Assembly: GCA_003159795.1 (NCBI GenBank)
Contig: PLPK01000052.1
Span: 1-62,482, forward strand
Reading direction: 5' to 3'
Source of the DNA: Acidimicrobiaceae bacterium
GTDB lineage: Bacteria; Actinomycetota; Acidimicrobiia; Acidimicrobiales; Bog-793
DNA length: 62,482 nucleotides
Shown here: positions 16,084 through 39,724 of the stretch, piece by piece
Layout of the letters: each line of letters opens with the position of its first letter
Position numbering within the stretch: the first letter of the stretch is position 1
The notes under the pieces: generated by a model
What the model was told of the DNA's origin: nothing
Database searches by the model: none
The model's input: only the letters and a program-made list of their open reading frames with translations
Program-made: the position numbers and the translations under genes

Positions 16084-16215
16084 ATCCCGCTCCTCCTGGC
16101 CGAACGCGCGGCCTGCCGGTCGGCCTCACCGGCCAGGAGCGGGGTCACCTCCGGCGAGGTTCCGGAGGCACTGCACCGTGCAGTCGCCAACCCTGACGCG
16201 AGGTCCGACATCTTG

Positions 16216-16387
16216 CCGAGGCAGGTCTCCTGACTCCCGGATCAACGCTCGCCCGTGCCTTCCCAGGACCCGTGTCCCAGTGGCGTCGCTCGGGTTCGCT
16301 CCCCGGTCACAGTGGCGCGACCGTGCCGGATTCCCACCGGCTTCCCTTTTCAGCCCCCGGCTCAACGTTGCCGGCGGCCACCTCGGG
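16216..16387 (-). ncRNA. Cobalamin riboswitch
   Basis: Minus strand: AAAAGGGAAGCCGGTGGGAATCCGGCACGGTCGCGCCACTGTGA...GCCACTGG...GGGAAGG...AGTCAGGAGACCTGCC; upstream of the btuFCD-like operon. Confidence 0.93.
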
Positions 16388-16411
16388 TGCTACGCAAATC
16401 GTGCAGCGGCG

Positions 16412-20355: not shown

Positions 20356-20670
20356 GCGCCACGGCACCCCGGCCCGCACGTGCTTGTCCGCGTGGAACCG
20401 CCGAGGTCTGGAGGCCCCGCGGAGGAGCTCGTCATCACCGCGGACGGCACAGTGCCGTCCATCCGGCCGGGAGGTCTGGGCCAGCCGATTTGGATCTCGC
20501 CCGCGTGGCTCGCAGGTTCTCGGGCGCCTTGCCGGCCGGCATCGTCACCGACCAGGCGCGTCCGGGCGACGCCTCGAATCAGATCGTCCGCACGTTCTGG
20601 AACCCGCAGCTCCTGTCGACAGCGTGGTTCGCCGAGTCCGACAGGTCCCTCGGTCGGGGGATGTTGCTGT

Positions 20671-20692
20671 ATAGTACTAGAAATAGTAGTAT
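20671..20692. promoter_or_regulatory. Inverted-repeat operator upstream of YtrA-like GntR
   Basis: ATAGTACTA-GAAA-TAGTAGTAT (one mismatch), very AT-rich for this genome, 10 bp before the ATG. Confidence 0.6.
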
Positions 20693-20702
20693 CATAAACA
20701 CC

Positions 20703-21044
20703 ATGGAGATCGATCCAGCAAGTCCGATCCCGTTGCACGAGCAGGTCGCGGCTGCGATCCGCCGTGCCATCGCGGACGGCGAAGCCCGTCCAGGCGGCCG
20801 GCTTCCGCCGGCTCGGGATCTGGCTGCCGTTCTCGGCGTCAACCCGAACACCGTGTTTCGCTCCCTGCACACCCTTCGTGACGAGGGACTGCTCGAGTTT
20901 CGACGGGGACGAGGCGTCACCGTTACCGGCGCCGCTCCCCAGAACAGCGCAATCGTCACCAAAGCCCGTGAACTGGTGGCGTTGGCGCGGCGGATGGGAT
21001 ATCGGCGCGAGGAACTGGCCAAGCTCATCGAGCAGGTCTCGTGA
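20703..21044 (+). CDS. GntR family regulator (YtrA-like, short C-terminus)
   Basis: LHEQV...RLPPARDLAAVLGVNPNTV...LRDEGLL..RRGRG. Confidence 0.9.
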   Translation: MEIDPASPIPLHEQVAAAIRRAIADGEARPGGRLPPARDLAAVLGVNPNTVFRSLHTLRDEGLLEFRRGRGVTVTGAAPQNSAIVTKARELVALARRMGYRREELAKLIEQVS

Positions 21045-21050
21045 GGAGTC

Positions 21051-22169
21051 GTGGCAATGACGCTCGTCTGTGAACAGCAAGTATTGGTGGTGCTCGAGGC
21101 CGAGGCACTGATCAAGGAGGCACGCCGGAGGCAGCACAGACGCTGGTTTGCCCTCGGCGCGCTGGTGGTCGTGGTCGCGGCCACGGTTGGCGTCGTTGCG
21201 GCCCGCAACGGTGGCGGCCGACCCGCCTTGCGACCGACGGCGCGGGTGTCGCCATCCACAACTGCCGAGCTGTTCGGGAGATCCGTCGCGGTCCCCTCCC
21301 AGTTCATCGCGGCCGGTTGGCCGGTGCAGAACATGCCCGCGGGCCAACTCAGCTGGGGAAGAGAACTCGTGCTGATGGCGACGAAGGATGGCCGGGTGCA
21401 GCGCGTCCTGGCCCGCGGTTTGCTCACCACGGGCGGGAGCGCCGGGAGCACCGTCTACTTCGTGCGGAACTCCCCGAATGGCGTCTCGGACATCGCCAAG
21501 GTCTCCACGGCTGGCGGACCCGTCGGGACCGTCGCCGTCGGTGCGCTGCCGACGCCGAGCCCGAATGGCCGCTTCCTCGCCTATGTCTCACACTCCACGG
21601 ACCTCGAAGTGCGTGATCTCGTCACGGACGCGACGACGTCGATGGCGCTGTCCTCCCTCATGCCCGGTGTTCACGGGCTGATAGTCGTGGGACTGGCCTG
21701 GCTGTCGCCAGGTGACCGGCTCGCCTTGATCGTCCGTTCCGTGTTGAACGCCGAGGCCGGTGCGAGACTCGAGGTCGTCGGTGTCCGCGCGGGTCATCTG
21801 GCCGGAACCGGGACGAGGCGTCTTGGTCCGGGCGAGACCTGGATCTTCCTTGCCCGCAGCTCCCAGCCGAACACGCTGCGCGCCGCGTGGATACCGACCA
21901 GGGGAACGTCGACGGCCATTCACGTCGTGCGGATCAGTCTCTCTGGCGGCCGCGCGACCATTGCCAACATCGCCGCGCTTCCCGGGGTCTGTGGCGCCGG
22001 CGCCTTGGATGACGTCGATCCGAGCGGGCGGTACGTGCTGTGTTCGGTCGGGAGCTCCGGCAGCACATCCTTCGCCCACATCGATCTCGTGCGCTTCGAG
22101 CACGGAAGATACGTCGTTGCCGCCTCCACGGGCGCCGATCGATTCGTGATCACTTCGGCCTCCTGGTGA
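21051..22169 (+). CDS. Membrane-anchored extracellular beta-propeller-like hypothetical protein
   Basis: EALIKEARRRQHRR followed by TM helix; PSPNGRFLAY and LAWLSPGDRLAL blade-like motifs. Confidence 0.55.
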   Translation: MAMTLVCEQQVLVVLEAEALIKEARRRQHRRWFALGALVVVVAATVGVVAARNGGGRPALRPTARVSPSTTAELFGRSVAVPSQFIAAGWPVQNMPAGQLSWGRELVLMATKDGRVQRVLARGLLTTGGSAGSTVYFVRNSPNGVSDIAKVSTAGGPVGTVAVGALPTPSPNGRFLAYVSHSTDLEVRDLVTDATTSMALSSLMPGVHGLIVVGLAWLSPGDRLALIVRSVLNAEAGARLEVVGVRAGHLAGTGTRRLGPGETWIFLARSSQPNTLRAAWIPTRGTSTAIHVVRISLSGGRATIANIAALPGVCGAGALDDVDPSGRYVLCSVGSSGSTSFAHIDLVRFEHGRYVVAASTGADRFVITSASW

Positions 22170-22247
22170 GCGCTCACGGCCTGCGACGGGTCGTGTCGAC
22201 CTGCCGACCGGGCACTGCATGACAGCCCGACTGCTCCCCCCGACACC

Positions 22248-22488
22248 CGGAGGCTCATCCTCGGCCGCCGTCACCTGGAGGCCGTTCTCGCAAGGTACGT
22301 CGAGCACGACAACTCGCACCGTCCCCAAGGGTCGCTCGGACGATGTCCGCCATCTCCAGCGGATTCGACCCCTCAGGGTTTAGGCGACGCCGACCTCAGA
22401 AAGCTGCGAAGAATCGACCGTCCAGGCGGGCTCATCCACGAGCACTCGATGGTGGCCCGAAGCGGGTCGACGGATTCTCGGCACCCAC
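22248..22488 (+). pseudogene. 3' remnant of an rve integrase-core (IS481/IS3-like) transposase with element end
   Basis: Own translation: RRLILGRRHLEAVLARYVEHDNSHRPQGSLG...RPGGLIHEHSMVA, resembling HYNxHRPHxSL...LGGLIHEY; followed by GGATTCTCGGCACCCAC. Confidence 0.7.
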
Positions 22489-22756
22489 GGGTTCACGTCG
22501 GCGGCCCGTCGGTCGCGTACCTGCGACGCTGACGCCATTTCCTGCTCTACGACACATTTGCCCTTTTGGCAGCCCTGCTAGTGTTCGCGCCCAGACGGGT
22601 AGCAGCTGGTACCTGCAGTTCCTGGAGGCGCAGTCAAATGGGGGCCACCGGACAGGTTTCCTGCCGGTTCCTGGGGTCCTGAGCACTGACGGGTCACTGC
22701 TCCGAGCGTGGCCGACGCGACTCCGGAACTGATTGAAACCAACCAAGGGCGCGACG

Positions 22757-25519
22757 ATGAAGGGGACTGGCGGCACCGCATCAGAGCCGAAGGACGAGCC
22801 CCCGGCCGCCGACGCGGGCCAGGTGCCGACGGAGCCGGGTCCGGACCAGCCTCCCGGGAGGTCTCTGTCGGCCGACATCTTCATCTCCTACTCCCGCAAG
22901 GACATCGCCTTCGCGCGCTTGCTCCGCTCCTCTTTGGAATCTTCGGGCCTCAACACCTGGATCGACTGGGAAAGGATCCCGGTTGGCGAGCAGTGGTGGT
23001 CCGAGATCTCCCAGGCGATCGAGCGGTGCAACGTCTTCATGTTCATCATCAGCGCCAGCTCCATCGGCTCTTCGGTCTGCAAGGACGAGATCAACGAGGC
23101 GCTCAAGAACCACAAGCGGGTCATCCCGGTCCTCGTCGACAACGTGACACCCGAAGCCGTGCGCGAGTTCATCCCCGAGCTGCCGGGCTTGAACTGGGTC
23201 GTCTTCGAAAAGGACCACCTCTTCCGGCTCGGCGAAGACGCCGAGGCCGCGCCCGGGCGAGACGAAGACCGCCTGGTGGCATTGCCCAACACGCCCCAGT
23301 TCGAGCAGGCCCTGGCCAAGCTCACCGAGACGGTTCACACCGACTGGGACTGGGTGAAAGCTCATACCCAGTTGCAGGTGGACGCCCTCAGGTGGTCGGC
23401 CCGGGGTCGGGACGCCAGCTACTTGGTCCGCGGCTCGGCCCTCGAGGACGCGGAAGGCTGGCTCGCGCGCGCCGTCGGTAGGGACCCCCAGCCCACCCTG
23501 CTCCAGTCGCAGTTCATCTCTGCTGGCCGTCTCGAAGAGGCCCGTCGCCAGCGCGAGGCAGCCCGGCGACAGCGCCGGCTGCTGCGGGTGATCGCCATTG
23601 CACTCGTGGTCACGGTGGCGCTCGGGTGCGTTGCCATCATCCAGCGTTCCGATGCTCGGCGAGAGGCGCACATCGCCCAGGGGCAGGCTCGCCTCGCCGA
23701 GTCGGGAGACCTGGCAGCCGAGTCGACCAACGTGATGCCCGGCAATGCTGGGCTCGGGGCGTTGCTCAGCCTTGAGTCCTTGCGGCTCTCAGCGAACGCA
23801 ACGGCTAGGGCCGCCGTCTTCAACGCCCTCGGCCAACCCCTCGACACCATTCTTTCCGGGCTTTCCAGTCGCGACATTGTTGGCGACTTCAGGCCCATCG
23901 ATGGCGTCACCTTCAGCCCGGACGGGAAGATCCTGGCCATCGTGCAAGACGACGGCAACGTGGTGCTCTGGGACACGGCCACGCACGCCAGGCTCGGCGA
24001 GCTCGGCGACGGGAACGCCATCGGCGCCGTCGCCTTCAGCCCGGACGGGAAGACCGTGGCCGCCGGGGATAATGACGGCAACGTGGTGCTCTGGGACACG
24101 GCCATGCGCACCAGGCTCGCCCGGTTCAGCGAAGTGAACCCCATCGACAGCCTCGCGTTCAGCCCGGACGGGAAGACCCTGGCCGGCGGGGATGACGAAG
24201 GTCTCGTCGTGCTCTGGGACACGGCCACGGGCACCCGACTTGGCCAGCTCGGCCAGCTCAGCGGCGACGCAATCGTCCAAGTTGCTTTCAGCCCGGACGG
24301 CAAGTCGCTGGTCACCGCGGGTTCGGGCGGTGTGGTGCTCTGGGACACCGCCACGCGCTCCAGGCTCGGCCAGCTTGGCAGCCACATGATGTTCTTTGGG
24401 AGCGTCGCCTTCAGCCCGAATGGGCAAACTCTGGCCACGGCGAATGCGAGCGGTGCGGCGCTCTGGGACCTCGCCACGCGCTCCAAGCTCGGCCAGCTCG
24501 GCCTGACCAACAGCAGTAGCCAGGACCTCAGCGCCGCCTACAGCCCGGACGGGAAGATCCTGGCTATCGGGGATGACGAGGGCAAGGTGGTGCTCCGGGA
24601 CACGGCCACGCGCACCCAGCTCGGCCAGCTCGGCAAGAACATGAACCTGGTTGGCGTCGCCTTCAGCCCCGACGGGAAGACCCTCGCCACCGTAGAGACC
24701 GCGGAGTGGGGGCTGGTTTACGGCAAGGTGGTCCTCTGGGACACCGCCACGCGCACCCAGCTCGGCCAGCTCGGGAGCGGCGACCAAGTCTGCAGCGTCG
24801 CTTTCAGCCCGGACGGGAAGACTCTCGCCACCGCGGATTTTGACGGCAAGGTGGTCCTCTGGGACGCGGCCACGCACACCAAGCTCGGCGAGCTCAGCGG
24901 CGGGCTCCGCCTCGACAGCGTCGCCTTCAGCCCGGACGGGACAACCCTGGCCGCCGGGAATGACGAGGACGACGTGGTCCTCTGGGACACGGCGAAGCGC
25001 GCCAAGCTCGGCGAGCTCAGCGGCGGGAACCCGAATGAGCAGGAGACCTTCACCCCCCAGGGGACCATAGCCTTCAGCCCCGACGGGAAGACCTTGGGCG
25101 CCGTGGACGCCAGCGGCAACGTGGTGCTCTGGGACACTGCCACGCGTACCCAGCTCGGCCAGCTCAGCGACGGGAGCCCCACTGAGAGCGTCGCCTTCAG
25201 CCCCGACGGGAAGACCCTGGCCACCGGGGACGACGCAGGAAACGTGGTGCTCTGGGACACGGCCACGCGTACCCAGCTCGGCCAGCTCAGCGGCGACGTC
25301 CAGATCGACAGCGTCGCCTTCAGCCCGGACGGGAAGGACCTGGCCAGCGCGGATCTGGACGGCACGGTGGCGCTCGTCCCCTCGCTGTACTGGGCGGGGA
25401 ATTTCGTCAGGGTCCAGAAGATCCTCTGCGCCGAGGTAGGCGCCAACCTCACACGAGCGCAGTGGCGTCAATACGTTCCCAATGAGCCTTACCGCGCCAT
25501 CTGCCCGGTCCACCCCTAG
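22757..25519 (+). CDS. TIR domain - helical linker - TM - WD40 repeat protein
   Basis: DIFISYSRKD...WIDWERIPVG...SSVCKDE (putative catalytic Glu), WSARGRDASYLVRG linker, hydrophobic helix, 12 (F/Y)SP(D/N)G repeats. Confidence 0.9.
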   Translation: MKGTGGTASEPKDEPPAADAGQVPTEPGPDQPPGRSLSADIFISYSRKDIAFARLLRSSLESSGLNTWIDWERIPVGEQWWSEISQAIERCNVFMFIISASSIGSSVCKDEINEALKNHKRVIPVLVDNVTPEAVREFIPELPGLNWVVFEKDHLFRLGEDAEAAPGRDEDRLVALPNTPQFEQALAKLTETVHTDWDWVKAHTQLQVDALRWSARGRDASYLVRGSALEDAEGWLARAVGRDPQPTLLQSQFISAGRLEEARRQREAARRQRRLLRVIAIALVVTVALGCVAIIQRSDARREAHIAQGQARLAESGDLAAESTNVMPGNAGLGALLSLESLRLSANATARAAVFNALGQPLDTILSGLSSRDIVGDFRPIDGVTFSPDGKILAIVQDDGNVVLWDTATHARLGELGDGNAIGAVAFSPDGKTVAAGDNDGNVVLWDTAMRTRLARFSEVNPIDSLAFSPDGKTLAGGDDEGLVVLWDTATGTRLGQLGQLSGDAIVQVAFSPDGKSLVTAGSGGVVLWDTATRSRLGQLGSHMMFFGSVAFSPNGQTLATANASGAALWDLATRSKLGQLGLTNSSSQDLSAAYSPDGKILAIGDDEGKVVLRDTATRTQLGQLGKNMNLVGVAFSPDGKTLATVETAEWGLVYGKVVLWDTATRTQLGQLGSGDQVCSVAFSPDGKTLATADFDGKVVLWDAATHTKLGELSGGLRLDSVAFSPDGTTLAAGNDEDDVVLWDTAKRAKLGELSGGNPNEQETFTPQGTIAFSPDGKTLGAVDASGNVVLWDTATRTQLGQLSDGSPTESVAFSPDGKTLATGDDAGNVVLWDTATRTQLGQLSGDVQIDSVAFSPDGKDLASADLDGTVALVPSLYWAGNFVRVQKILCAEVGANLTRAQWRQYVPNEPYRAICPVHP
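23890..25380 (+). repeat. 12 highly similar WD40-coding tandem repeats (~120-140 bp)
   Basis: Recurrent TTCAGCCCGGACGGGAAGACC and GTGGTGCTCTGGGACACGGCCACGC blocks. Confidence 0.9.
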
Positions 25520-25660
25520 CCCAGGGGCATGTGACGAGTTGCGCCGCCCCTCCGAACGTCTGGCCCGCGGGGCGGTCCCGGCGGAGCAACGGGTGCCGAC
25601 CGCGCGCGTCGAGACCTCCGGTCACCAATCCTGAGGCACACGGCTGCGCCCAGGCCCTGA

Positions 25661-28147
25661 CTATCGCTCCCGCACGATCTCGAGCCCGACCTCGGCCAGG
25701 TAGGCCGGGATCTGGCGCACAGTGTCCCGGTCCCAGCCCTTGGCTTCGTCCGACAGCTCCGCCCAGCTGACGATGCAGGGACTGGTCTTCTTGGCGACGT
25801 CCTTCTTCGGGCCCCATACCCAACCGTCCATCAGGCGCTCGACGTTCCACCTCGCGTGCTCGACTTCGGCGAGTGTCTCGGCCTCGTCGTCGGTCAGCTG
25901 CACGAGCCCGGCATCCGGGCCGGCTGCTCGCACCGCGCAGCCGATCTCGCGGAGCTTGTCGTAGATGGCGTCAGCCTGTTTGCGATTTGCTTCCTTCAGG
26001 CTGTCCTCGAGCGCCGCCCACTCGGCCAACGACAGGTCGTCGCTGACCGCGTTCCTCTGCCGCTGGCGGTAGTTCTCGTGGATCGCCCGCGCGATGGTCT
26101 CCCGCATGCCGCCGTCCAGCGTCGAGGTGTCACGCTCGACGAACGCCTTCACCGTCAGCGCCTCGGCGGGCAGGCGCAGCAGCCTGGGCGACCGGCTCCA
26201 GTCGTCATCCTGCAGGAGTTTGGCCGCGGCACGACCGCTTCCGTCGACAATCGCGACCCATGCGCCGAGGGCGAGAGCGATACGGTACTCGGCCGCCGCG
26301 ATGGGACCACCGCCGATGCCGAGCAGCTTGACCTCCGACGCGTTCGTGCCCGTCGCGATGAGATCGATCCAGCTTTGCAACGACTCGAGCGGGGTAAAAC
26401 CCTCACCGGCGGTCGTCCGGATCTCGTCGTAGCGACCCGGATCCCTGTCGACCGCGGCGTCGGCGGGGACGAACAGCGGGACATAGCCGACGGCGCGGAT
26501 CGACCCCGGACACGCGGCGCGCAGGTCACCGACCAATCCGGAGACGCCCTCGATCGTGCCGCCGGAAATGACCGTGCCGGTGAACCCGTCGAAGGCGTCG
26601 ACCAGCAGCGAGCGACAAGCGATCGTCTGATCGCCTGAGACGGTGCCGCCGCCCGCGACGATGACCACAGGACCGCTGATCGGCTCGCACGTCGTCGAGG
26701 CGAGCGTCTTCAGCTTCCTGAGCGCGTCGTCCGAAGGAAACTTCTCGGCTCGAGCGGCCAGCAGCAGCCGTAGCACCCACTCGTGGCCCGGCAGCTTGTC
26801 GGCGACGGGTGCCAGACGGTCGAGCGAATACAACGTCGTGTCGATCATGAAAGGAGCGGTGGTCAGTTGCAGCGCTTTTCCGTAGGCGGCCAGGCTCTCG
26901 TAAGACTCCCCGAGCATCAGATGAAACTCGCCCATGCTGTAGAAGGCCCACGGCAGGTTCACGCCGACGTCGGCCTGGTCACGGCAGCGCTCGATCGCCG
27001 AGCGGATGATCGGCCCGGTGAGCGAGACCACGGACGTGTCGCGTCGGTAAGAGATCTCCGACTCGAGGTAGTTGGTCAGCGCGTAGGGATCCGATGGATC
27101 GACCTCGAACGCCTGGCGGTACAGCTCGCGAGCCCGGTCGTCGTCAACGCCCTTGCACGTGCCGGCGAGCGAGGCCAGCGCGTCCGCATCAGTGGGGGAC
27201 AGCTCGATGGCCGCTTCGAGATAGCCCTGACCCTGGAGGTACTCGGCGCAACGCGGCGTGTCTCGATGCAGCTTGCACGTCGCAACACCGAGGTCGCGCA
27301 GCACCGTCGCGTCCTGCGAGTCGACGTACTCGCTGAGAATGTCCACGGCCTTGTGCCAGTCACCGAGCTCGATCGCAAGCTTGCCGATCCTGGCCGCCAG
27401 GTCGGCGTTCTCGGGATCGACCGTGAGGACGAATTCGAGCACCTCCAGTTCGCGGCGCATCTGATCCTCGGTCATGTAGGCGCCGTAGCTGGAGGCGTAC
27501 TCCCTAAGGCCGCCGTGGATTCGCGAGAACGAGCTGTCGGCCTGCTCGAGAACCGCCGCCACCCGGGCGAATTCACGTTGCCACCTGTCCGGGATCTCGA
27601 ACCCGGCCTTGTAGGCGAGCTCGTGGGCGGTGTCGGCCCAGGCGTGCTCGAGGATGGTGCGCACCTGCACCTCGGCTCGGTGGTTCGGCATCGCGAGGAG
27701 CTCGGGCGGGACGTCCACCTCGATCTCCTCGGTGGGAAAGACGCCCGATTTGAAACTGACGATGTAGTGGACGGAGCGGTAGCCGAACTCGCTCGGCTTG
27801 AGCCGCTGGCGAACGTCGATGCTGTTGTCCCAGTCGATCTCGAAGTGCTCCTCGACGAACTTGGAGATCGCGTCAACCTCTTCGGACGTGTGAACGATGA
27901 CCCTGCCGCCGCAAAGGTCGGTGAACTCATCGACGGGATTCGCACAGCGTTTGCGGAAGATCTTCTCGGCGAAGCTGGCAATCGACTTCGGCCGTGCCTG
28001 GACGATGGCGAGCGGTGCGGTCTTCGTCGCGGCCTTGCCCAAGACCTGCTCGAGTGTCGCGGCGAACACCACGTAGCCCGGACGGCGCTCCCTGAAAGCC
28101 GCGATCTGGCCGCGGGCCCAAGCGAGCTCGGATTCGCCCTCAGTCAT
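25661..28147 (-). CDS. RelA/SpoT synthetase - TPR - SLOG-like - RyR domain protein
   Basis: RPKSIASFAEK, DLCGGRV, GYRSVHY, EVQVRTILEHAWA (SYNTH); TPR helices; IVAGGG/VISGGT.GV/GGGPIAAAE (SLOG); IARAIHENY and EHARWNVER..GWVWG...PCIVSWAELS (RyR); AAGGGAG RBS. Confidence 0.85.
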   Translation of the reverse strand: MTEGESELAWARGQIAAFRERRPGYVVFAATLEQVLGKAATKTAPLAIVQARPKSIASFAEKIFRKRCANPVDEFTDLCGGRVIVHTSEEVDAISKFVEEHFEIDWDNSIDVRQRLKPSEFGYRSVHYIVSFKSGVFPTEEIEVDVPPELLAMPNHRAEVQVRTILEHAWADTAHELAYKAGFEIPDRWQREFARVAAVLEQADSSFSRIHGGLREYASSYGAYMTEDQMRRELEVLEFVLTVDPENADLAARIGKLAIELGDWHKAVDILSEYVDSQDATVLRDLGVATCKLHRDTPRCAEYLQGQGYLEAAIELSPTDADALASLAGTCKGVDDDRARELYRQAFEVDPSDPYALTNYLESEISYRRDTSVVSLTGPIIRSAIERCRDQADVGVNLPWAFYSMGEFHLMLGESYESLAAYGKALQLTTAPFMIDTTLYSLDRLAPVADKLPGHEWVLRLLLAARAEKFPSDDALRKLKTLASTTCEPISGPVVIVAGGGTVSGDQTIACRSLLVDAFDGFTGTVISGGTIEGVSGLVGDLRAACPGSIRAVGYVPLFVPADAAVDRDPGRYDEIRTTAGEGFTPLESLQSWIDLIATGTNASEVKLLGIGGGPIAAAEYRIALALGAWVAIVDGSGRAAAKLLQDDDWSRSPRLLRLPAEALTVKAFVERDTSTLDGGMRETIARAIHENYRQRQRNAVSDDLSLAEWAALEDSLKEANRKQADAIYDKLREIGCAVRAAGPDAGLVQLTDDEAETLAEVEHARWNVERLMDGWVWGPKKDVAKKTSPCIVSWAELSDEAKGWDRDTVRQIPAYLAEVGLEIVRER

Positions 28148-28170
28148 GATTGGAGTCTCCCTTGTGCGGC

Positions 28171-28581
28171 CTATTGGTGAGAGATCAGACCGAAGTACGA
28201 CCTGATCTGCCTCGCCTCCGAAGAGCCGGGAGGACAGTGCTCATACTCGTCCGGCCCTATCCAGGCGAAGGCGCTGTGCTCCGAGCTCAGCGTGACCTCG
28301 CCGTCGACGTAGTCGCACACGAACGTGACGCCGGTGACCCAGAACGGCTCCTTTAGGAAGTGCCAGGTCGCGAACGGACGACCGACCTCGATTGTGAGCC
28401 CGGTCTCCTCCGCGACCTCGCGCTTCAGTGCCGTTTCCAGCTCCTCGCCGTAACGGATCTTTCCGCCGGGTAGCTCCCACAGGCCCAGGTCGAGGCTACT
28501 GTTCCCCGATCGCTGCAACAGCAGGATCTTGCCCTCCCGCCTGACGATCGCCCTAGCAGCCACGCCGAGCGGCTTATCCAC
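28171..28581 (-). CDS. NUDIX hydrolase
   Basis: WELPGGKIRYGEELETALKREVAEETGL Nudix box; GGAAAGGA RBS before GTG 28581. Confidence 0.9.
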   Translation of the reverse strand: MDKPLGVAARAIVRREGKILLLQRSGNSSLDLGLWELPGGKIRYGEELETALKREVAEETGLTIEVGRPFATWHFLKEPFWVTGVTFVCDYVDGEVTLSSEHSAFAWIGPDEYEHCPPGSSEARQIRSYFGLISHQ

Positions 28582-28825
28582 AGCAGTTCCTTTCCACAAC
28601 GCCAGCCAGCCCGAGTGCCATGGCTTTCTGGCAGGCGGTCCGCTCGCGCAAACGAGCGGCTGAGGCCAGGGCGTGCAACTCTTCCACGAGATTGTCTCGA
28701 GCGGCTGAACGCCGACTATAGGTATCGCGGGCGGAGATAGGCAGTGTCGCTGGGCCGGGTCTGCGAAAGGGTCGCGCTTCACCTGTAGGTGGCGCGTATC
28801 CGATCCCTCGAGACTGAGCCGAACC

Positions 28826-29089
28826 TTGGCCACTGTAGGTGAGGCGTATGTCTTGCGTCACGACGATCCACCCGTCCTCGGCGTCATGATCACCGGGATC
28901 GCCATCGCCGGCACGGCGATGGTCCTGCTCGAGATCGTCGGGCTCTTCGTCGGCCCGCACGGCGAGCTCGGTCGTGAGCGGTGGGCCACGTCGAGATCCC
29001 TTGATCTGGCGCCGGGTGGTCCAGAAGGGTGCCGGTTTCGTCGGCCTAGTCCTCATCGGCAAAGCCGGGATTTGGGTGTTCTCACCTGA
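28826..29089 (+). CDS. Possible small membrane hypothetical protein
   Basis: Single hydrophobic helix; weak support. Confidence 0.25.
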   Translation: MATVGEAYVLRHDDPPVLGVMITGIAIAGTAMVLLEIVGLFVGPHGELGRERWATSRSLDLAPGGPEGCRFRRPSPHRQSRDLGVLT

Positions 29090-29122
29090 AATGGACGCAC
29101 GAAGGACTAGATCAGCAATCTT

Positions 29123-30613
29123 CTAGATCTCGTTCGCGAGGTAGTTCGGCGCGTCGCGCACGCCGAACAGGTCGTGGGGGTGACTCTCCCGGTGCGCCTC
29201 GGGGCTCACGCGGATGAAACGCGCCTCCTCGCGCAGCTGTGTGATCGTGCGCGTGCCGCAGTAGCCCATCGCCTGGCGCAGGCCCCCGACGAGCTGGTGC
29301 ACGACCCCGCCGAGCGGTCCCCGGAACGGCACGTATCCCTCGACGCCCTCGGGAACCATCTTTTCCGGGTCGACGACGAGCTCCTGGGAGTAGCGGTCCC
29401 TGGAGTACGAGCGGTTCGCCATCGCCGAGAGGCTCCCCATTCCCCGGTAGCGCTTCACGGGCCGGTTGCCGAGCATCGTCGTCTCGCCAGGGCTCTCCTC
29501 GACGCCGGCGAACAGCCCCCCGATCATCACGGCATGCGCCCCGGCGCCCACTGCCTTGGCGATGTCGCCCGAGAAGCGCACGCCCCCGTCGGCGAGGATC
29601 CCGATGCCGTGGTGGTGCGCCTCTTCGGCGCACTCGTGGATCGCCGTCCACTGCGGGACCCCGACACCCGTCACGACCCGCGTCGTGCAGATCGCCCCGG
29701 GTCCGATGCCGACCTTCACGACGTTGGCACCAGCTTCGGCGAGCGCCCTGGTCGCGGCGGCCGTGCCGACGTTGCCGGCGATGATCACGCCGCCCGGCCA
29801 GTTGCGCCGCAGCTCGGCGACCGTGTCGATCACCCGCCGGGCGTGGCCGTGGGCCGTGTCGACGCAGACCGCGTCGACCTCGGCGTCGATCAGCATCTTG
29901 GCCCGGGTCAGTCCCTCGGCCCCGACGCCAATCGCGGCCGCGACCCGCAGTCTGCCCTCGGGGTCCTTGCAGGCCCGGGGGAACGCCGCCTGTTTCGTGA
30001 TGTCCTTCACGGTGATGAGGCCGCGCAGGTGGTTGTCGCCGTCGACGATCGGGAGCTTCTCGACCTTGGAGGCCCCGAGGATCCGGCGCGCCCCGGCGAG
30101 GTCGGTGCCGAGCGGCGCCGTGATGAGGCCGGTCGAGGTCATCACCTCGGACACGGGCACCGCGGGGTCCTCGTGGAAGCGCAGGTCGCGGTTCGTCACG
30201 ATGCCCAACAGGTGGTCGTCGGGGTCGACCACGGGGATCCCGGAGATGTGGAAGCGGCTCATCAGCTCGAGGGCCTCGGCGACGGGGCGGTCGGGCCCGA
30301 TCTTGATCGGGTTGAGCACCATGCCGGCCTCGGAGCGTTTGACGCGGTCGACTTCTTCGGCCTGGCTCTCGGCGGGCATATTGCGGTGGACGACCCCGAG
30401 GCCGCCGAGGCGGGCCAACGCGATCGCCATCCGGGCCTCGGTGACGGTGTCCATCGCCGCCGAGACGAGTGGGATGTTGAGTTCGAGGCCGTCGCACAGG
30501 CGCGCCGTCGTGTCGACCTCGTTCGGCAGGACGTCCGATGCACGGGGGACCAGCAGCACGTCGTCGAAGGTCAGGGCGATGCCGCCTGAGGATTGTGGAT
30601 CGACGAGCGCCAC
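29123..30613 (-). CDS. guaB: IMP dehydrogenase
   Basis: LTFDDVLLVP, SAAMDTVTE, CBS pair, DTAHGH, GIGPGAICTTR, YRGMGS, PEGVEG. Confidence 0.97.
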   Translation of the reverse strand: MALVDPQSSGGIALTFDDVLLVPRASDVLPNEVDTTARLCDGLELNIPLVSAAMDTVTEARMAIALARLGGLGVVHRNMPAESQAEEVDRVKRSEAGMVLNPIKIGPDRPVAEALELMSRFHISGIPVVDPDDHLLGIVTNRDLRFHEDPAVPVSEVMTSTGLITAPLGTDLAGARRILGASKVEKLPIVDGDNHLRGLITVKDITKQAAFPRACKDPEGRLRVAAAIGVGAEGLTRAKMLIDAEVDAVCVDTAHGHARRVIDTVAELRRNWPGGVIIAGNVGTAAATRALAEAGANVVKVGIGPGAICTTRVVTGVGVPQWTAIHECAEEAHHHGIGILADGGVRFSGDIAKAVGAGAHAVMIGGLFAGVEESPGETTMLGNRPVKRYRGMGSLSAMANRSYSRDRYSQELVVDPEKMVPEGVEGYVPFRGPLGGVVHQLVGGLRQAMGYCGTRTITQLREEARFIRVSPEAHRESHPHDLFGVRDAPNYLANEI

Positions 30614-34537: not shown

Positions 34538-35248
34538 TTGTGCGGCCGTTACGTCCTCGCGACGCCGATCGATGAGCTCGCCGACTTCTTTGGGGCGACA
34601 CGTGCCCCCGGGTTTGATGGGGAGTGGGCCGCGAACTACAACATCGCGCCGACCAGGACCGTGCTGTGCCTGTCGGCCGGTGCCGAAGGTGGCCGCGTCC
34701 TTGCCACCTACCGCTGGGGCCTGATCCCCTCCTGGGCCAAGGAGCCGTCGGTCGGGAGCCGCCTTTTCAACGCCCGTGCCGAGACGGTCGCCGTGAAGCC
34801 TTCGTTCCGCGCTGCTTTCAAGGCTCGCCGGCTCGCCGTGGTCTCGGACGGGTTCTTCGAGTGGCGCCGGGGCGCGGGCACTCGCCGCCAGCCGTACTTC
34901 CTCAGTCGTGCCGACGGATCCCCGATGGCGTTCGCCGGCCTGTGGGAGTCCTGGCGCGACCCGGCCACCAGCGGGGACGAGGCCGCGGCGGTCCGCTCCT
35001 GCACGATCATCACGACGGAGGCGAATCCGGAGGTCGCGCCGATCCACGACCGCATGCCGGTCGTGCTCGGGCGCGACGGGCTCGAGGCTTGGCTCGACCC
35101 CCTTGTCGCTGAACGGGATGAGCTTGAGGCGCTGCTACGGCCGGCGCCTGCTGGCACGCTCGCCGTGCGTCCCGTCAGCCCGGCCGTCGGCAGCGTGCGC
35201 AACAACGGACCGCATCTGATCGAGGAGGTGGCGCCGGTCCGGGACTAG
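34538..35248 (+). CDS. SRAP / HMCES-YedK abasic-site crosslinking protein
   Basis: N-terminal CGRY (TTG start), YNIAPT, WGLIP, NARAET, GFFEW, IHDRMP. Confidence 0.92.
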   Translation: MCGRYVLATPIDELADFFGATRAPGFDGEWAANYNIAPTRTVLCLSAGAEGGRVLATYRWGLIPSWAKEPSVGSRLFNARAETVAVKPSFRAAFKARRLAVVSDGFFEWRRGAGTRRQPYFLSRADGSPMAFAGLWESWRDPATSGDEAAAVRSCTIITTEANPEVAPIHDRMPVVLGRDGLEAWLDPLVAERDELEALLRPAPAGTLAVRPVSPAVGSVRNNGPHLIEEVAPVRD

Positions 35249-37328: not shown

Positions 37329-38114
37329 ATGACCGTGGCACTTCCCGTCCCCGAGGCGGGCGAATCCAACCCCGGGAGCCCGGGTCCTGGTCAGCGGGCC
37401 CGTCCGGCGGTCCCCGGTCTGATCGCGCAACGGGTCCGGCCGCTCGTCCTGGCGCGTGACGAGCTCCTGCCGGTCGCCCCGGGATTCGCCGAGCTGCTCG
37501 GCACGCCCGGCCTGCGGCGGGGGAGCACCCTCGCCGTCACGGCGGAGGGTGCTCGCGGGACGACGGCCGTCGCGCTCGCCCTCCTCGCCGCGGCGAGCTC
37601 GGTGGGGGTGTGGTGCGGGGTAGTCGGGCTGGAGGACCTCGGGCTCGTCGCCGCGGACGAACTTGGCGTCGCCCTCGACCATCTCGTCCTCGTGCCCCGA
37701 CCGGCGAGGCGCTTTTCAACCGTGGTCGCGGCGCTGCTCGACGGGTGCGACATCGTGCTCGCCGGCGGGTCCGAGCTCGCCCCGGCCGACCGACGGCGGC
37801 TGAGCGTCCGGGCGCGGGAGCGCCGGGCGGTGCTCATCACGCTGGCCGGCTCGCAGGCGACGGCCGCCCTGGTCGGCCGGCCATGGTCGGGCGGAGCCGA
37901 CGTCCGGCTCTCGGTGGTGGGGGGCGAGTTCGCCGGGCTGGGATCCGGCAGCGGCCGGATCCGCTCCCACCGGGTCGATCTCATCGCGACCCGGCATGCC
38001 GCCTCTCCGCGTGAGGTGCAGGCCAGTCTCTGGCTCCCGCCGTCGCCCGGGGACGCCCCGTCGGTACTCCCGGTCGCCACGAGGGCGGCGGTGGGCTCGG
38101 CGGGTGCGCGTTGA
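37329..38114 (+). CDS. imuA: ImuA' (RecA-like mutasome protein)
   Basis: LPVAPGFAELL..GLRRGST, AALLDGCDIV, ARERRAVL; SOS box; upstream of imuB. Confidence 0.85.
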   Translation: MTVALPVPEAGESNPGSPGPGQRARPAVPGLIAQRVRPLVLARDELLPVAPGFAELLGTPGLRRGSTLAVTAEGARGTTAVALALLAAASSVGVWCGVVGLEDLGLVAADELGVALDHLVLVPRPARRFSTVVAALLDGCDIVLAGGSELAPADRRRLSVRARERRAVLITLAGSQATAALVGRPWSGGADVRLSVVGGEFAGLGSGSGRIRSHRVDLIATRHAASPREVQASLWLPPSPGDAPSVLPVATRAAVGSAGAR

Positions 38115-39724
38115 GAGACCCCACCCCCGCGCGGACGCTCGTCCTGTGGTGCCCCGACTGGCCGGTGAGCGCCGCCGGGCACCGTCCCGAAGAGGCGGTC
38201 GCCGTTGTCGCCAACGGCAAGGTGGTTGCCGCCTCGGTGGCCGCCCGGCGGGCGGGTGTCCACCCTCCTCAGCGCCGGCGCCAGGCGGAGTCGTGCTGTG
38301 CCGGGCTCGCGATCGTCCCTCGCGACCCTGGGGCCGAGGCCCGGGCCTTCGAGCCGGTCGTCGTCGCGCTGGAGGGCTTTGGGGCGCTCGTCGCCGTCCG
38401 GCGTCCGGGCTGGGCCGCGCTCGCGACCCGCGGGCCGGCCCGGTACTTCGGAGGCGAGGAGTCCTTCGCCGTCGAGGTGGCGGGGGCGGTCGAGGCGCTC
38501 GGCGAACGCCTCGGGCTCGCTGGGGCGTCGCCACCCGCCGTCGAGCGGGCGACCCTCGCCGGTGATTGGTGGCGGATCGGGATCGCCGACGGGCCGTTCA
38601 CGGCGACGATGGCCGCGCAACGAGGCTGCATCGTCCCCCGGGATGAGGCCCGGGCGTTCCTCGCGCCATTCGATATCGAGCGCATCGGGAGCGGGGAACT
38701 CGCCGATCTGCTGCGGCGTCTCGGGGTCACGACCCTCGGCGGCTTCGCCGCACTCGACGAGACCGACGTTCTCGCCCGTTTCGGCCCCGACGGAGCGCGG
38801 CTCCACCGGCTCGTCCGGGGACTCGACGGGCGTTCCCTCGCGGTACGCCCGCGTCCGCGCGATCTCGCCGTCGAGACACTCCTCGAGCCACCCGCCACCG
38901 ACGTCGACACGGCAGCATTCCTCGCGAAGAGTCTCGCCGAGAAGCTCTGCGTTCGGCTCGCTGGCGAGGCGCTCGCCTGCAGTCTTCTGGAGATCGAGGT
39001 CGAGACGTCGACGGGGGACCGGCTCGCGCGCCGTTGGGTGCACGACGGGGCCTGGACTCCGGTACTCGTCGCCGAGCGGCTCCGTTGGCAGCTCGAAGCG
39101 TGGCTCACGGGTGCGGGCCGGCGTGACGCCTCGGACGGGACGACCGAGCGGATCGGGATCGCGCGCGTCCGGCTCTCGCCGGCCGAGGTCGTCCCCGACA
39201 CCGGCCGCCAGCTCGAGCTGTGGGGGCGTCCGCGTACCGACGATGACCGGGTCGCCCGGGTGTTCGCCCGGGTCCAGGGACTGCTCGGGCCCGAGGCGGT
39301 TGTCCGGCCCCTCCTCGTCGGTGGCCGGGGACCGGCCGAACGGGTCCGTCTCTTCCCGTTCGGGGATCCTCTGCCGACCGGCCCCGCCGACGCCGCGCAG
39401 CCGTGGCCGGGGCAGCTGCCCTGCCCGAACCCGACCGTGGTGCCCCAGGAGCCGTATCCGGCCGAGGTGCTTGACAGCGACGGCCGTCATGTCGGCGTGG
39501 ACGGCCGTGGCACGCCGAGCGGGGTGCCGGCGCGCGTCGCCGTTGGCGGACAGCCGGCGTCGGACGTCGTCGCCTGGGCCGGTCCGTGGCCTGTCGACGA
39601 GCAGTGGTGGGACACGGCCGTGCGCCGCCGGCGCGCCCGGCTCCAGGTCGTGACGGTGGGCGGTGAGGCGTACCTGCTCGCCCTCGACCGGGGTCGCTGG
39701 GTCGTCGAGGGGAGCTACGACTGA
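38111..39724 (+). CDS. imuB: ImuB (inactive Y-family polymerase)
   Basis: LVLWCPDWP, EARAFEPV, RYFGGE, PWPGQLP.P.P, WAGPWPVDEQWW, EGSYD. Confidence 0.92.
   Translation: MRDPTPARTLVLWCPDWPVSAAGHRPEEAVAVVANGKVVAASVAARRAGVHPPQRRRQAESCCAGLAIVPRDPGAEARAFEPVVVALEGFGALVAVRRPGWAALATRGPARYFGGEESFAVEVAGAVEALGERLGLAGASPPAVERATLAGDWWRIGIADGPFTATMAAQRGCIVPRDEARAFLAPFDIERIGSGELADLLRRLGVTTLGGFAALDETDVLARFGPDGARLHRLVRGLDGRSLAVRPRPRDLAVETLLEPPATDVDTAAFLAKSLAEKLCVRLAGEALACSLLEIEVETSTGDRLARRWVHDGAWTPVLVAERLRWQLEAWLTGAGRRDASDGTTERIGIARVRLSPAEVVPDTGRQLELWGRPRTDDDRVARVFARVQGLLGPEAVVRPLLVGGRGPAERVRLFPFGDPLPTGPADAAQPWPGQLPCPNPTVVPQEPYPAEVLDSDGRHVGVDGRGTPSGVPARVAVGGQPASDVVAWAGPWPVDEQWWDTAVRRRRARLQVVTVGGEAYLLALDRGRWVVEGSYD

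Follow-up and report, generated by a model that had tools for sequence, protein, structure and literature searches.

A RelA/SpoT synthetase fused to TPR, SLOG and RyR modules and paired with a Nudix hydrolase: a possible effector of a Thoeris-like nucleotide relay

Introduction

What does a RelA/SpoT-type synthetase respond to, and what does it bring about, when it forms a single chain with TPR, SLOG and RyR modules? The question is raised by P0001, an 828-residue protein encoded on the reverse strand of a 62,482-nucleotide stretch of an Acidimicrobiaceae genome (assembly GCA_003159795.1, contig PLPK01000052.1), the whole of which is referred to as the window. An earlier note, made from the letters of this stretch, had described the arrangement and proposed an autoinhibited synthetase regulated by several nucleotide ligands. 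Here the four-module architecture is confirmed, and we consider P0001 as the effector of a Thoeris-like nucleotide relay, probably antiviral, with an alarmone as output. To this reading, whose biochemical steps are stated conditionally throughout, we give about an even chance.

Results

Architecture of the synthetase protein

The reading frame of P0001 is whole, from an ATG at 28147 to a stop at 25661 with zero internal stops, and four modules account for the entire chain:

25661..28147, (-): P0001, synthetase-TPR-SLOG-RyR protein, 828 aa (Pfam, homologues, AlphaFold)
27476..28147, (-): RelA/SpoT synthetase head, aa 1-224 (Pfam, alignment, structure search)
26684..27475, (-): TPR solenoid, aa 225-488, candidate brake (Pfam, AlphaFold)
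26132..26683, (-): SLOG domain, aa 489-672 (fold search, conservation in 59 rows)
25664..26131, (-): tandem RyR module, aa 673-828 (Pfam, Foldseek, alignment)

This architecture is real and not due to chance, since of 627 homologous proteins found when 8000 candidates were scored, the 120 best align over 98-100% of P0001 with identities of 51-61%. A contig of the DNA run spanning 25263-29174 shows no differences from the window, although the run may itself be the window's source; contigs of the RNA library gave short matches to the synthetase gene and to the adjacent TIR and Nudix genes described below, for which DNA carry-over is possible.

In the Pfam scan, aa 52-181 matched RelA_SpoT (E 9e-18), aa 223-430 matched TPR models, and aa 512-648 matched LSDAT_prok, the SLOG model (E 7e-5; 22.5 bits, below the 25.4-bit cut-off, which some relatives pass); RyR was matched by the second repeat only, at aa 755-824 (E 1.5e-13). 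HD, TGS and ACT families were absent from the 16 Pfam matches. The AlphaFold model, calculated with 120 homologues, reached a pLDDT of 90.0 and a pTM of 0.79 and extends the TPR helices to about aa 482; residues 485-828, folded separately for the SLOG and RyR fold searches, gave a pLDDT of 94.8. The earlier note was thus right about the synthetase motifs and the lack of HD, TGS and ACT domains, about the TPRs behind them and about the SLOG-like segment, which falls below the Pfam cut-off and is recognised by its fold (Z up to 18.0). Of the two RyR repeats it had claimed, the second is found by Pfam and the first is degenerate, the tandem arrangement being supported by Foldseek. The check by AlphaFold and Foldseek that it had suggested comes out in support of both folds. 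Two attempts to relate the tail to the head were uninformative: a complex prediction of the head with the SLOG-RyR tail scored 0.02 against a mark of 0.32, which is evidence neither way, and a mutual-information analysis of 244 rows was dominated by the gap signal from members lacking RyR.

The synthetase head

Locus counts refer to the best 80 of 486 GTDB stretches encoding a relative of P0001. Residues R52 (Syn1, at 27994 of the minus strand), K54, K62, D77, C79, G80, R82, F121, G122, Y123, E159, Q161, T164, Y179 and K180 (at 27610) do not vary in any of the 76 rows from these loci, H127 and H175 being kept in 75. Judged by this conservation, the head is very probably an active pyrophosphokinase. 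With a SYNTH domain bearing the Syn1 to Syn4 motifs and with no HD, TGS or ACT domain, P0001 has the make-up of a small alarmone synthetase (SAS).

The best solved structures for the head are small synthetases of the RelQ/RelP type (E 1e-14 to 1e-20), against 1.6e-3 for CapRel and 0.035 for FaRel2. The NCBIfam model NF053588 for the single-domain RelP/RelQ enzymes nevertheless scores P0001 at 49.8 bits, under its cut-off of 320 bits, and thus does not admit it. Compared by eye, a D-x-C-G-x-R Syn2 and an FGYRS-x-H Syn3 are common to the head and to 6 of 6 FabRel rows (C79 being invariant in the P0001 family), and the head motifs are less like those of DsRel than those of FabRel. FabRel, which includes an archaeal member (PMC7229694, supplement and Dataset S5; PMC10434055, supplement 2), differs in its size of about 320-350 aa and in its C-terminal region. 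By these motifs the head may be FabRel-like.

As to the product, Syn3 of the family reads S-x-H (S in 69/76, H in 75/76) and Syn4 reads V-R/K. The available text of PMC12226406 gives G-x-N and Y-H as the signatures of Apk2, which makes (p)ppApp, and S-x-H and V-R as those of the guanosine type; by sequence, the family signatures are of the guanosine type and unlike those of Apk2. The head would thus probably make (p)ppGpp; (pp)pApp seems unlikely, and some other product equally so.

A brake on such a head has a precedent in Tde-SAS of Treponema denticola, where the TPR domain cuts the catalytic efficiency for ppGpp about 18-fold, as given in the available part of PMC10434055. By analogy, the TPR-SLOG-RyR tail of P0001 likely represses its synthetase.

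The SLOG and RyR modules

In the fold search, chains of the SLOG superfamily filled all of the top 23 rows, the first unrelated row having Z 8.8. The matches included TM1055 (Z 18.0; root-mean-square deviation, rmsd, 2.7; 160 residues aligned), TRPM2 (Z 14.6, rmsd 3.0, 185 aligned) and two ThsA chains (Z 11.8, rmsd 3.6, 151 aligned; Z 11.3, rmsd 3.4, 154 aligned). The domain has the Rossmannoid fold and the glycine-rich loops of the superfamily. Conserved positions are G499, G529-G530-T531-x-x-G534, G554-Y555-x-P557, Q591-x-W593-x-D595, G613-G614-x-I616 and E620; of the 59 rows compared, 54-59 retain the glycine loops, W593, D595 and E620. The SLOG domain of ThsA binds 3'cADPR, a cyclic ADP-ribose (cADPR), according to the available text of bioRxiv 10.64898/2025.12.03.692087.

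The first RyR repeat (AIHENY, with H690 and Y693) lacks the GW hairpin, and the second is canonical (H764, W767, K782, D806), with S789 at the position of H100 in the phage protein RyDEP. A tandem module is supported by Foldseek, which aligned about 190 columns to the two-repeat Repeat12 domain of RyR3 (E 1e-7), so that both the PF02026 profile match and the two-repeat fold place it with RyR/Repeat12. A search of the host genome with the family RyR profile found no second RyR module.

The earlier note had called the bacterial role of RyR repeats poorly known. This is dated, as two 2026 preprints, in the text available, show phage RyR domains to bind or cleave cyclic ADP-ribose signals. RyDEP cleaves 2'/3'cADPR through H75, W78, H100 and D117, and its homologues act as sponges (PMC13232231, available part); RyR Tad binds 3'-gcADPR at 43 nM through H129/W132, K147/H154 and K170/D171 (bioRxiv 10.64898/2026.06.04.730250, available part). 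Both belong to the same domain family as the module of P0001; they are small phage anti-defence proteins, whereas in P0001 the domain is part of an enzyme of the host. Over 76 columns RyDEP is 32% identical to the RyR module of P0001, with H75 at H764, W78 at W767 and D117 at D806, so that three of the four pocket residues are kept. Among 67 non-channel RyR modules, from 63 synthetases and 4 other neighbours, these three residues are retained in 67, 66 and 65, respectively, and among 18 channel modules in 18, 13 and 12; at the position of RyR Tad K147, placed by residue spacing, 66 of the 67 have K or R.

By fold and residues, both SLOG and RyR look like pockets for adenine or ADP-ribose nucleotides, and a ligand of the ADP-ribose type is slightly favoured for the tail. 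SLOG would be the sensor that stays constant, with RyR as an accessory, since complete proteins in 11 of the 80 loci terminate after SLOG. The several nucleotide ligands proposed in the earlier note become less probable with this, RyR being optional and the relatives of both modules binding the same class of ADP-ribose compounds; the architecture on which that proposal was built stands.

The Nudix partner

Three features were missed by the earlier note: a Nudix partner gene, an adjacent TIR gene, and the insertion in which all of them lie. The first lies immediately upstream of the synthetase gene:

28171..28581, (-): Nudix hydrolase, 136 aa, MutT/NudI/NudG-like (profiles, structure search)

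It starts with a GTG at 28581 preceded by AAGGA, and stops 23 nt ahead of the ATG of the synthetase, which has an AGGGAG of its own. From this layout, the Nudix gene opens an operon with the synthetase and likely encodes its eraser enzyme. A Nudix gene occurs in 49 of the 80 loci, in 48 on the same strand and in 40 within 250 nt, which is the layout of a two-gene unit with a neighbouring hydrolase seen in toxic small alarmone synthetase (toxSAS) modules; all 11 archaeal loci have it directly upstream of the synthetase. Two of 150 representatives (P0314, P0315) carry it fused to the N-terminus of the synthetase, where, by sequence, it occupies the place of HD in long Rel proteins, and in two loci (L046, L050) an HD_4 hydrolase directly upstream replaces it, that of L046 matching TIGR00691 at 2e-7.

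The window Nudix is 44-61% identical to 8 aligned Nudix proteins of P0001's clade and at most 36% identical to 33 others. Divergence of Nudix and synthetase is correlated with a rho of 0.29, which 0 of 500 permutations reach (the permutations ignore kinship).

Enzymes of the NudI/NudG/MutT types, with which the window protein ranks, can cleave (p)ppGpp. Models of ADP-ribose diphosphatases match it weakly (E 0.005), and its best solved match by far is PDB 3GRN, a 'MutT related protein' from structural genomics (E 2e-39, with the second-best structure at 4e-21), which could be used directly as a model. The available part of PMC3153485 names a Nudix of Thermus that degrades ppGpp. The hydrolase probably removes the product of the synthetase.

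The insertion and the rest of the window

Nudix and synthetase genes lie in an insertion together with three further genes:

20357..29027, (.): insertion of 8,671 bp between pdxT and guaB, GC 0.669 vs 0.718/0.708 in the flanks
20490-21044, (+): GntR gene
21051-22169, (+): beta-propeller protein, 372 aa, membrane-anchored, unnamed actinobacterial family
22733..25519, (+): TIR-TM-WD40 protein (TIR, membrane helix, WD40 repeats), 928 aa, Glu kept at the catalytic position

GC content at third codon positions is 0.75-0.88 in the insertion vs 0.91-0.93. In the closest relative, the congener G204, whose flanks are 94% identical, window position 20356 is joined directly to 29028. At this site G201, G202, G203 and G206 have a gap of 0.4-0.7 kb, and G205 and G208 one of 2.9 kb; the two flanks fall on separate contigs in G207. 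A recent insertion thus carries the GntR, propeller, TIR, synthetase and Nudix genes together. No target duplication was seen at the junction. Neither a sigma-70 promoter nor a terminator was matched in 22100-29200, and no tRNA was found in the window. The GntR and propeller genes were not seen in other synthetase loci. A link between the synthetase and guaB was rejected, guaB being outside the insertion and not recurring in the 80 loci.

The TIR-TM-WD40 gene converges on the synthetase gene across a gap of 141 nt, and the host genome (95% complete) gave no other TIR_2 match. Its WD40 repeats (23787-25370) consist of near-identical 123-bp DNA repeats with skip joints in the DNA run, possibly a repeat-number variation of the sensor. 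About 245 bp between the propeller and TIR genes (22247-22491) recur with about 70% matches at other places in several relatives; the contig of the DNA run branches at 22327, with a loose-end sequence that was not found in the genome, and the segment is possibly a mobile-element remnant or a conserved upstream element.

Elsewhere in the window are a Cobalamin riboswitch (RF00174, 116 bits, 16203-16400, minus strand) upstream of an ABC periplasmic-binding and permease pair (16083-14066), an SRAP/SOS-peptidase-like gene (34538-35248) and, assigned by eye, a pair resembling ImuA and ImuB/Y-family polymerase (37329-39724, plus strand).

TIR, DUF4062 and channel neighbours

TIR_2-type genes were found in 25 of the 80 loci, 19 of them within 2.5 kb, 5 at 2.5-5 kb and 1 beyond, the three distance bands holding 339, 281 and 288 kb of sequence. 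DUF4062, which we take to be TIR-like in nature, occurs in 21 loci, mostly on NACHT proteins; elsewhere it is often found as DUF4062-NACHT-WD40. A two-helix, channel-like RCK-RyR protein is encoded in 22 loci, among them 9 of the 14 of P0001's clade, and is missing from the window locus. SLATT, AAA-RyR and RyR-SpoIIE genes also occur near the synthetase loci, and RyR modules on neighbouring genes score up to 176 bits with the synthetase profile.

The RCK-RyR channels (L002:2439-4247, L005:5885-7711, L041:6642-8474 and 19 more loci) combine a non-canonical LFTLESG-like pore motif with the same RyR pocket. Without a synthetase, RyR matches were found in 7 of 200 order-level genomes, on RCK-RyR channel-like proteins. 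The neighbours carrying RyR at L051:5862-8501, L059:5859-8501, L024:14179-17037, L080:10217-12823 and L046:10480-12507 are AAA-type proteins of about 880-950 aa and a RyR-SpoIIE phosphatase; the Atlas also lists a cyclase-RyR cluster.

Distribution of the family

The family recurs among many uncultured bacteria and archaea, and its best 80 loci come from Chloroflexota, Bacteroidota, Planctomycetota, Verrucomicrobiota, Acidobacteriota, Bacillota and Actinomycetota, with 11 archaeal loci. Clustering at 50% identity leaves 150 representatives: 106 are complete in their four modules, RyR is missing from 18, and another 26 are shorter and probably fragmentary. In a quick tree, whose outgroups are unlabelled and nested on long branches and in which FabRel and DsRel references are not labelled, P0001 falls in a 14-row clade mixing six phyla (SH-aLRT 99). 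Of 201 order-level genomes, its own is the one in which the protein is whole, and searches of 8 congeners found it in none of them. The host has a separate, normal long Rel elsewhere in its genome. Together these observations give a patchy multi-phylum distribution that fits horizontal spread. A full-length family member was found in 0 of 38 matching plasmid records, 0 of 12 phages and 0 of 17 viral contigs.

A search for SLOG joined to other effectors in proteins of 189-602 aa gave 83 matches, mostly fragments of the same family, with no other Pfam effector. Nine of about 262-278 aa (P0164, P0166, P0173, P0174, P0180, P0181, P0187, P0188 and P0191) have a short helical start and SLOG alone and may be stand-alone forms or fragments. 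Three members (P0236, P0275, P0308) carry an N-terminal domain of 145-155 aa with no Pfam match ahead of the head, and a bathyarchaeal member (L009:1466-4648) has a KaiC-like ATPase C-terminal to the RyR module. Apparent N-terminal extensions in L028 and L029 were discarded as artefacts, as they overlap the upstream Nudix gene in another frame.

Comparison with known systems

Tde-SAS, of the DsRel (SAS-TPR) group, resembles P0001 in its N-terminal synthetase followed by TPR and its EFGY Syn3 loop, and, on the proposed reading, in its TPR brake and its main product, ppGpp. As far as the available part of PMC10434055 goes, it differs in having 410 aa, four TPRs, a Syn2 without Cys and a Syn4 that keeps Glu (VEH), in lacking SLOG and RyR, and in having an unlinked HD hydrolase as partner where P0001 has Nudix; at 828 aa with SLOG and RyR, P0001 is outside the two-domain, ~410-aa DsRel type. 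Modules such as FaRel with ATfaRel, and CapRel, share the tight unit of synthetase and hydrolase genes, but they are of a different subfamily by profile score, and P0001 has a Nudix as hydrolase and a large sensor tail.

Type I Thoeris (TIR protein ThsB with the SIR2-SLOG effector ThsA) is similar in its SLOG-fused enzyme effector, nearby TIR and patchy spread, and P0001 has the SLOG signal domain by fold. The Thoeris effector is a sirtuin, whereas P0001 is a synthetase with TPR, RyR and Nudix, and its TIR partners are large, multidomain and variable; here the TIR gene is adjacent and within the same insertion, but convergent. No curated ThsA-type effector model of PADLOC or NCBIfam matched the SLOG-RyR part, the whole protein matching PDC-S33 alone, over the head. 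P0001 would work like type I Thoeris and DsRel and, as tested, is neither by definition. The parts list also recalls the animal RyR Repeat12 and the MHR1/2 and NUDT9H domains of TRPM2, namely a tandem RyR fold, a SLOG fold, a Nudix and a cation-channel neighbour; in prokaryotes these parts sit on separate genes, and the homology is at the level of domains.

A literature search, which left out two comparative-genomics surveys that might list it, found no paper on this architecture. It is not described in the available passages of PMC9503650, PMC3482391, PMC10083569, PMC10802352 and bioRxiv 10.1101/2023.05.26.542521. The main text of the 2025 Thoeris survey (29 putative types) does not contain 'ppGpp', 'SpoT' or 'alarmone', nor that of the RyDEP paper 'SLOG', 'TrkA', 'Nudix' or 'fused'.

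Discussion

Proposed mechanism

The intact active site, the precedent for a TPR brake, the linkage to Nudix and TIR genes, their joint insertion, the likeness of SLOG to ThsA and TRPM2, and the RyR pocket lead us to the Thoeris-like reading. At rest, the TPR-SLOG-RyR tail would hold the synthetase low while the co-transcribed Nudix clears leaked product. The sensor, of the TIR or DUF4062 kind and represented here by the TIR-TM-WD40 protein, would turn NAD into an ADP-ribose signal, which would bind SLOG and probably also the optional RyR, a module reused on the RCK channel. With ATP as donor, the released head would pyrophosphorylate an acceptor, GDP or GTP being the most likely, and the alarmone, probably (p)ppGpp, would outpace the Nudix and arrest growth. 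An antiviral role is somewhat better favoured than not.

Several observations weigh against this reading. No TIR_2 gene was seen in 55 of the 80 loci and no Nudix in the available stretch of 31, some contigs being short in both counts; among the 48 loci whose sequence extends 3 kb to either side, TIR or DUF4062 is present in 31 and neither in 17, and Nudix is present in 29 and missing from 19. The profiles used to call neighbours come from these same 80 loci, with Pfam-confirmed seeds. TIR partners vary from locus to locus, the divergence of DUF4062 does not follow that of the synthetase (rho -0.08), and co-inheritance of Nudix with the synthetase is suggested modestly, the correlation being modest and kin not independent. 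In the window, the TIR gene is convergent and not co-transcribed, with its WD40 part past the membrane helix; the insertion is flanked by housekeeping genes, with no defence island, and no PADLOC model matches the SLOG-RyR part. In fold, the SLOG domain is nearer to LOG-like proteins than to ThsA. The ligand of RyR may differ, since the position of the phosphate-binding H100 of RyDEP is Ser in 54 and His in 3 of the 67 non-channel modules, and the animal RyR1 Repeat12 stacks ADP/ATP between W882 and W996 (PMC13642953, available part). The product is uncertain because the Glu of the RelQ 'ATIEH' motif, which we take to contact guanine, aligns to A174 and is replaced by S, A, G, V, T or N across the family.

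Put forward more tentatively is a two-tier immune circuit in bacteria and archaea, in which TIR or NLR-like sensors would make cyclic ADP-ribose, RyR and SLOG would read it on both the synthetase and the RCK channel, and Nudix would be the off-switch. The RyR domain that phages co-opted as a sponge would there have its native role, and the missing acceptor-site Glu would leave room for a non-guanine product.

Alternative explanations

The ADP/ATP bound by animal Repeat12, with Y693 and W767 of P0001 at matching helix motifs in a motif comparison, could instead point to metabolic or envelope-stress signalling, in which RyR reads ADP/ATP, SLOG reads another nucleotide, and the alarmone and the RCK-RyR channel tune physiology. 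Tde-SAS is a non-toxic housekeeping synthetase (PMC10434055, available part), the insertion adjoins guaB, and full-length copies were not found in the phage, plasmid and viral collections. We consider this explanation unlikely, given that the host has its own long Rel, that the gene is missing from the 8 congeners and whole in a single order-level genome, and that TIR, NACHT and SLATT neighbours are typical of conflict systems.

Rather less probable is a toxin-antitoxin pair with Nudix as enzymatic antitoxin, a phage protein on the TPR as trigger, and TIR genes as bystanders. The bicistronic layout and the many loci with no nearby TIR speak for it, as does the available part of PMC7229694, where a conserved arrangement of two genes predicts that the synthetase is toxic, and where the antitoxin can be an HD hydrolase. 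The head is, however, much nearer to the RelP/RelQ type than to CapRel or FaRel2 by E-value, and the conservation of the SLOG pocket in every complete member seen would be left unexplained.

The pair H75/D117 of RyDEP, kept as H764/D806, and the best SLOG matches, the LOG family and the TRPM2 chanzyme, raise the idea of a catalytic tail, in which SLOG or RyR would cleave a cyclic signal and Nudix would split ADP-ribose as in TRPM2 (SLOG with NUDT9-H), giving a self-limiting pulse. This is improbable: other tested homologues of RyDEP bind and do not cleave despite high conservation (PMC13232231, available part), the Nudix is of the NudI/NudG/MutT kind with weak ADP-ribose diphosphatase matches, and an RSH-type HD replaces it in two loci. 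That the RyR modules are protein-protein adaptors tying the synthetase to channel and AAA-RyR neighbours, as the closely similar modules on neighbouring genes might suggest, is very improbable, because the conserved residues are pocket residues common to phage nucleotide binders and the family profile finds no other RyR module in the host genome.

Significance

If the Thoeris-like reading is true, TIR/ADP-ribose immunity and the alarmones of the stringent response, until now separate subjects of study, would be joined in one protein. With a host RyR module that is small, soluble and attached to an enzyme whose output is easy to read, the old question of cyclic ADP-ribose sensing by Repeat12 becomes directly testable. 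The two-tier circuit, if true, would give prokaryotes a set of parts matching those of the animal RyR and TRPM2 channels and would open a route to archaeal alarmone signalling. The family is present together with its Nudix in several lineages of archaea, from which reports of such synthetases have been only sporadic (PMC3153485, available part).

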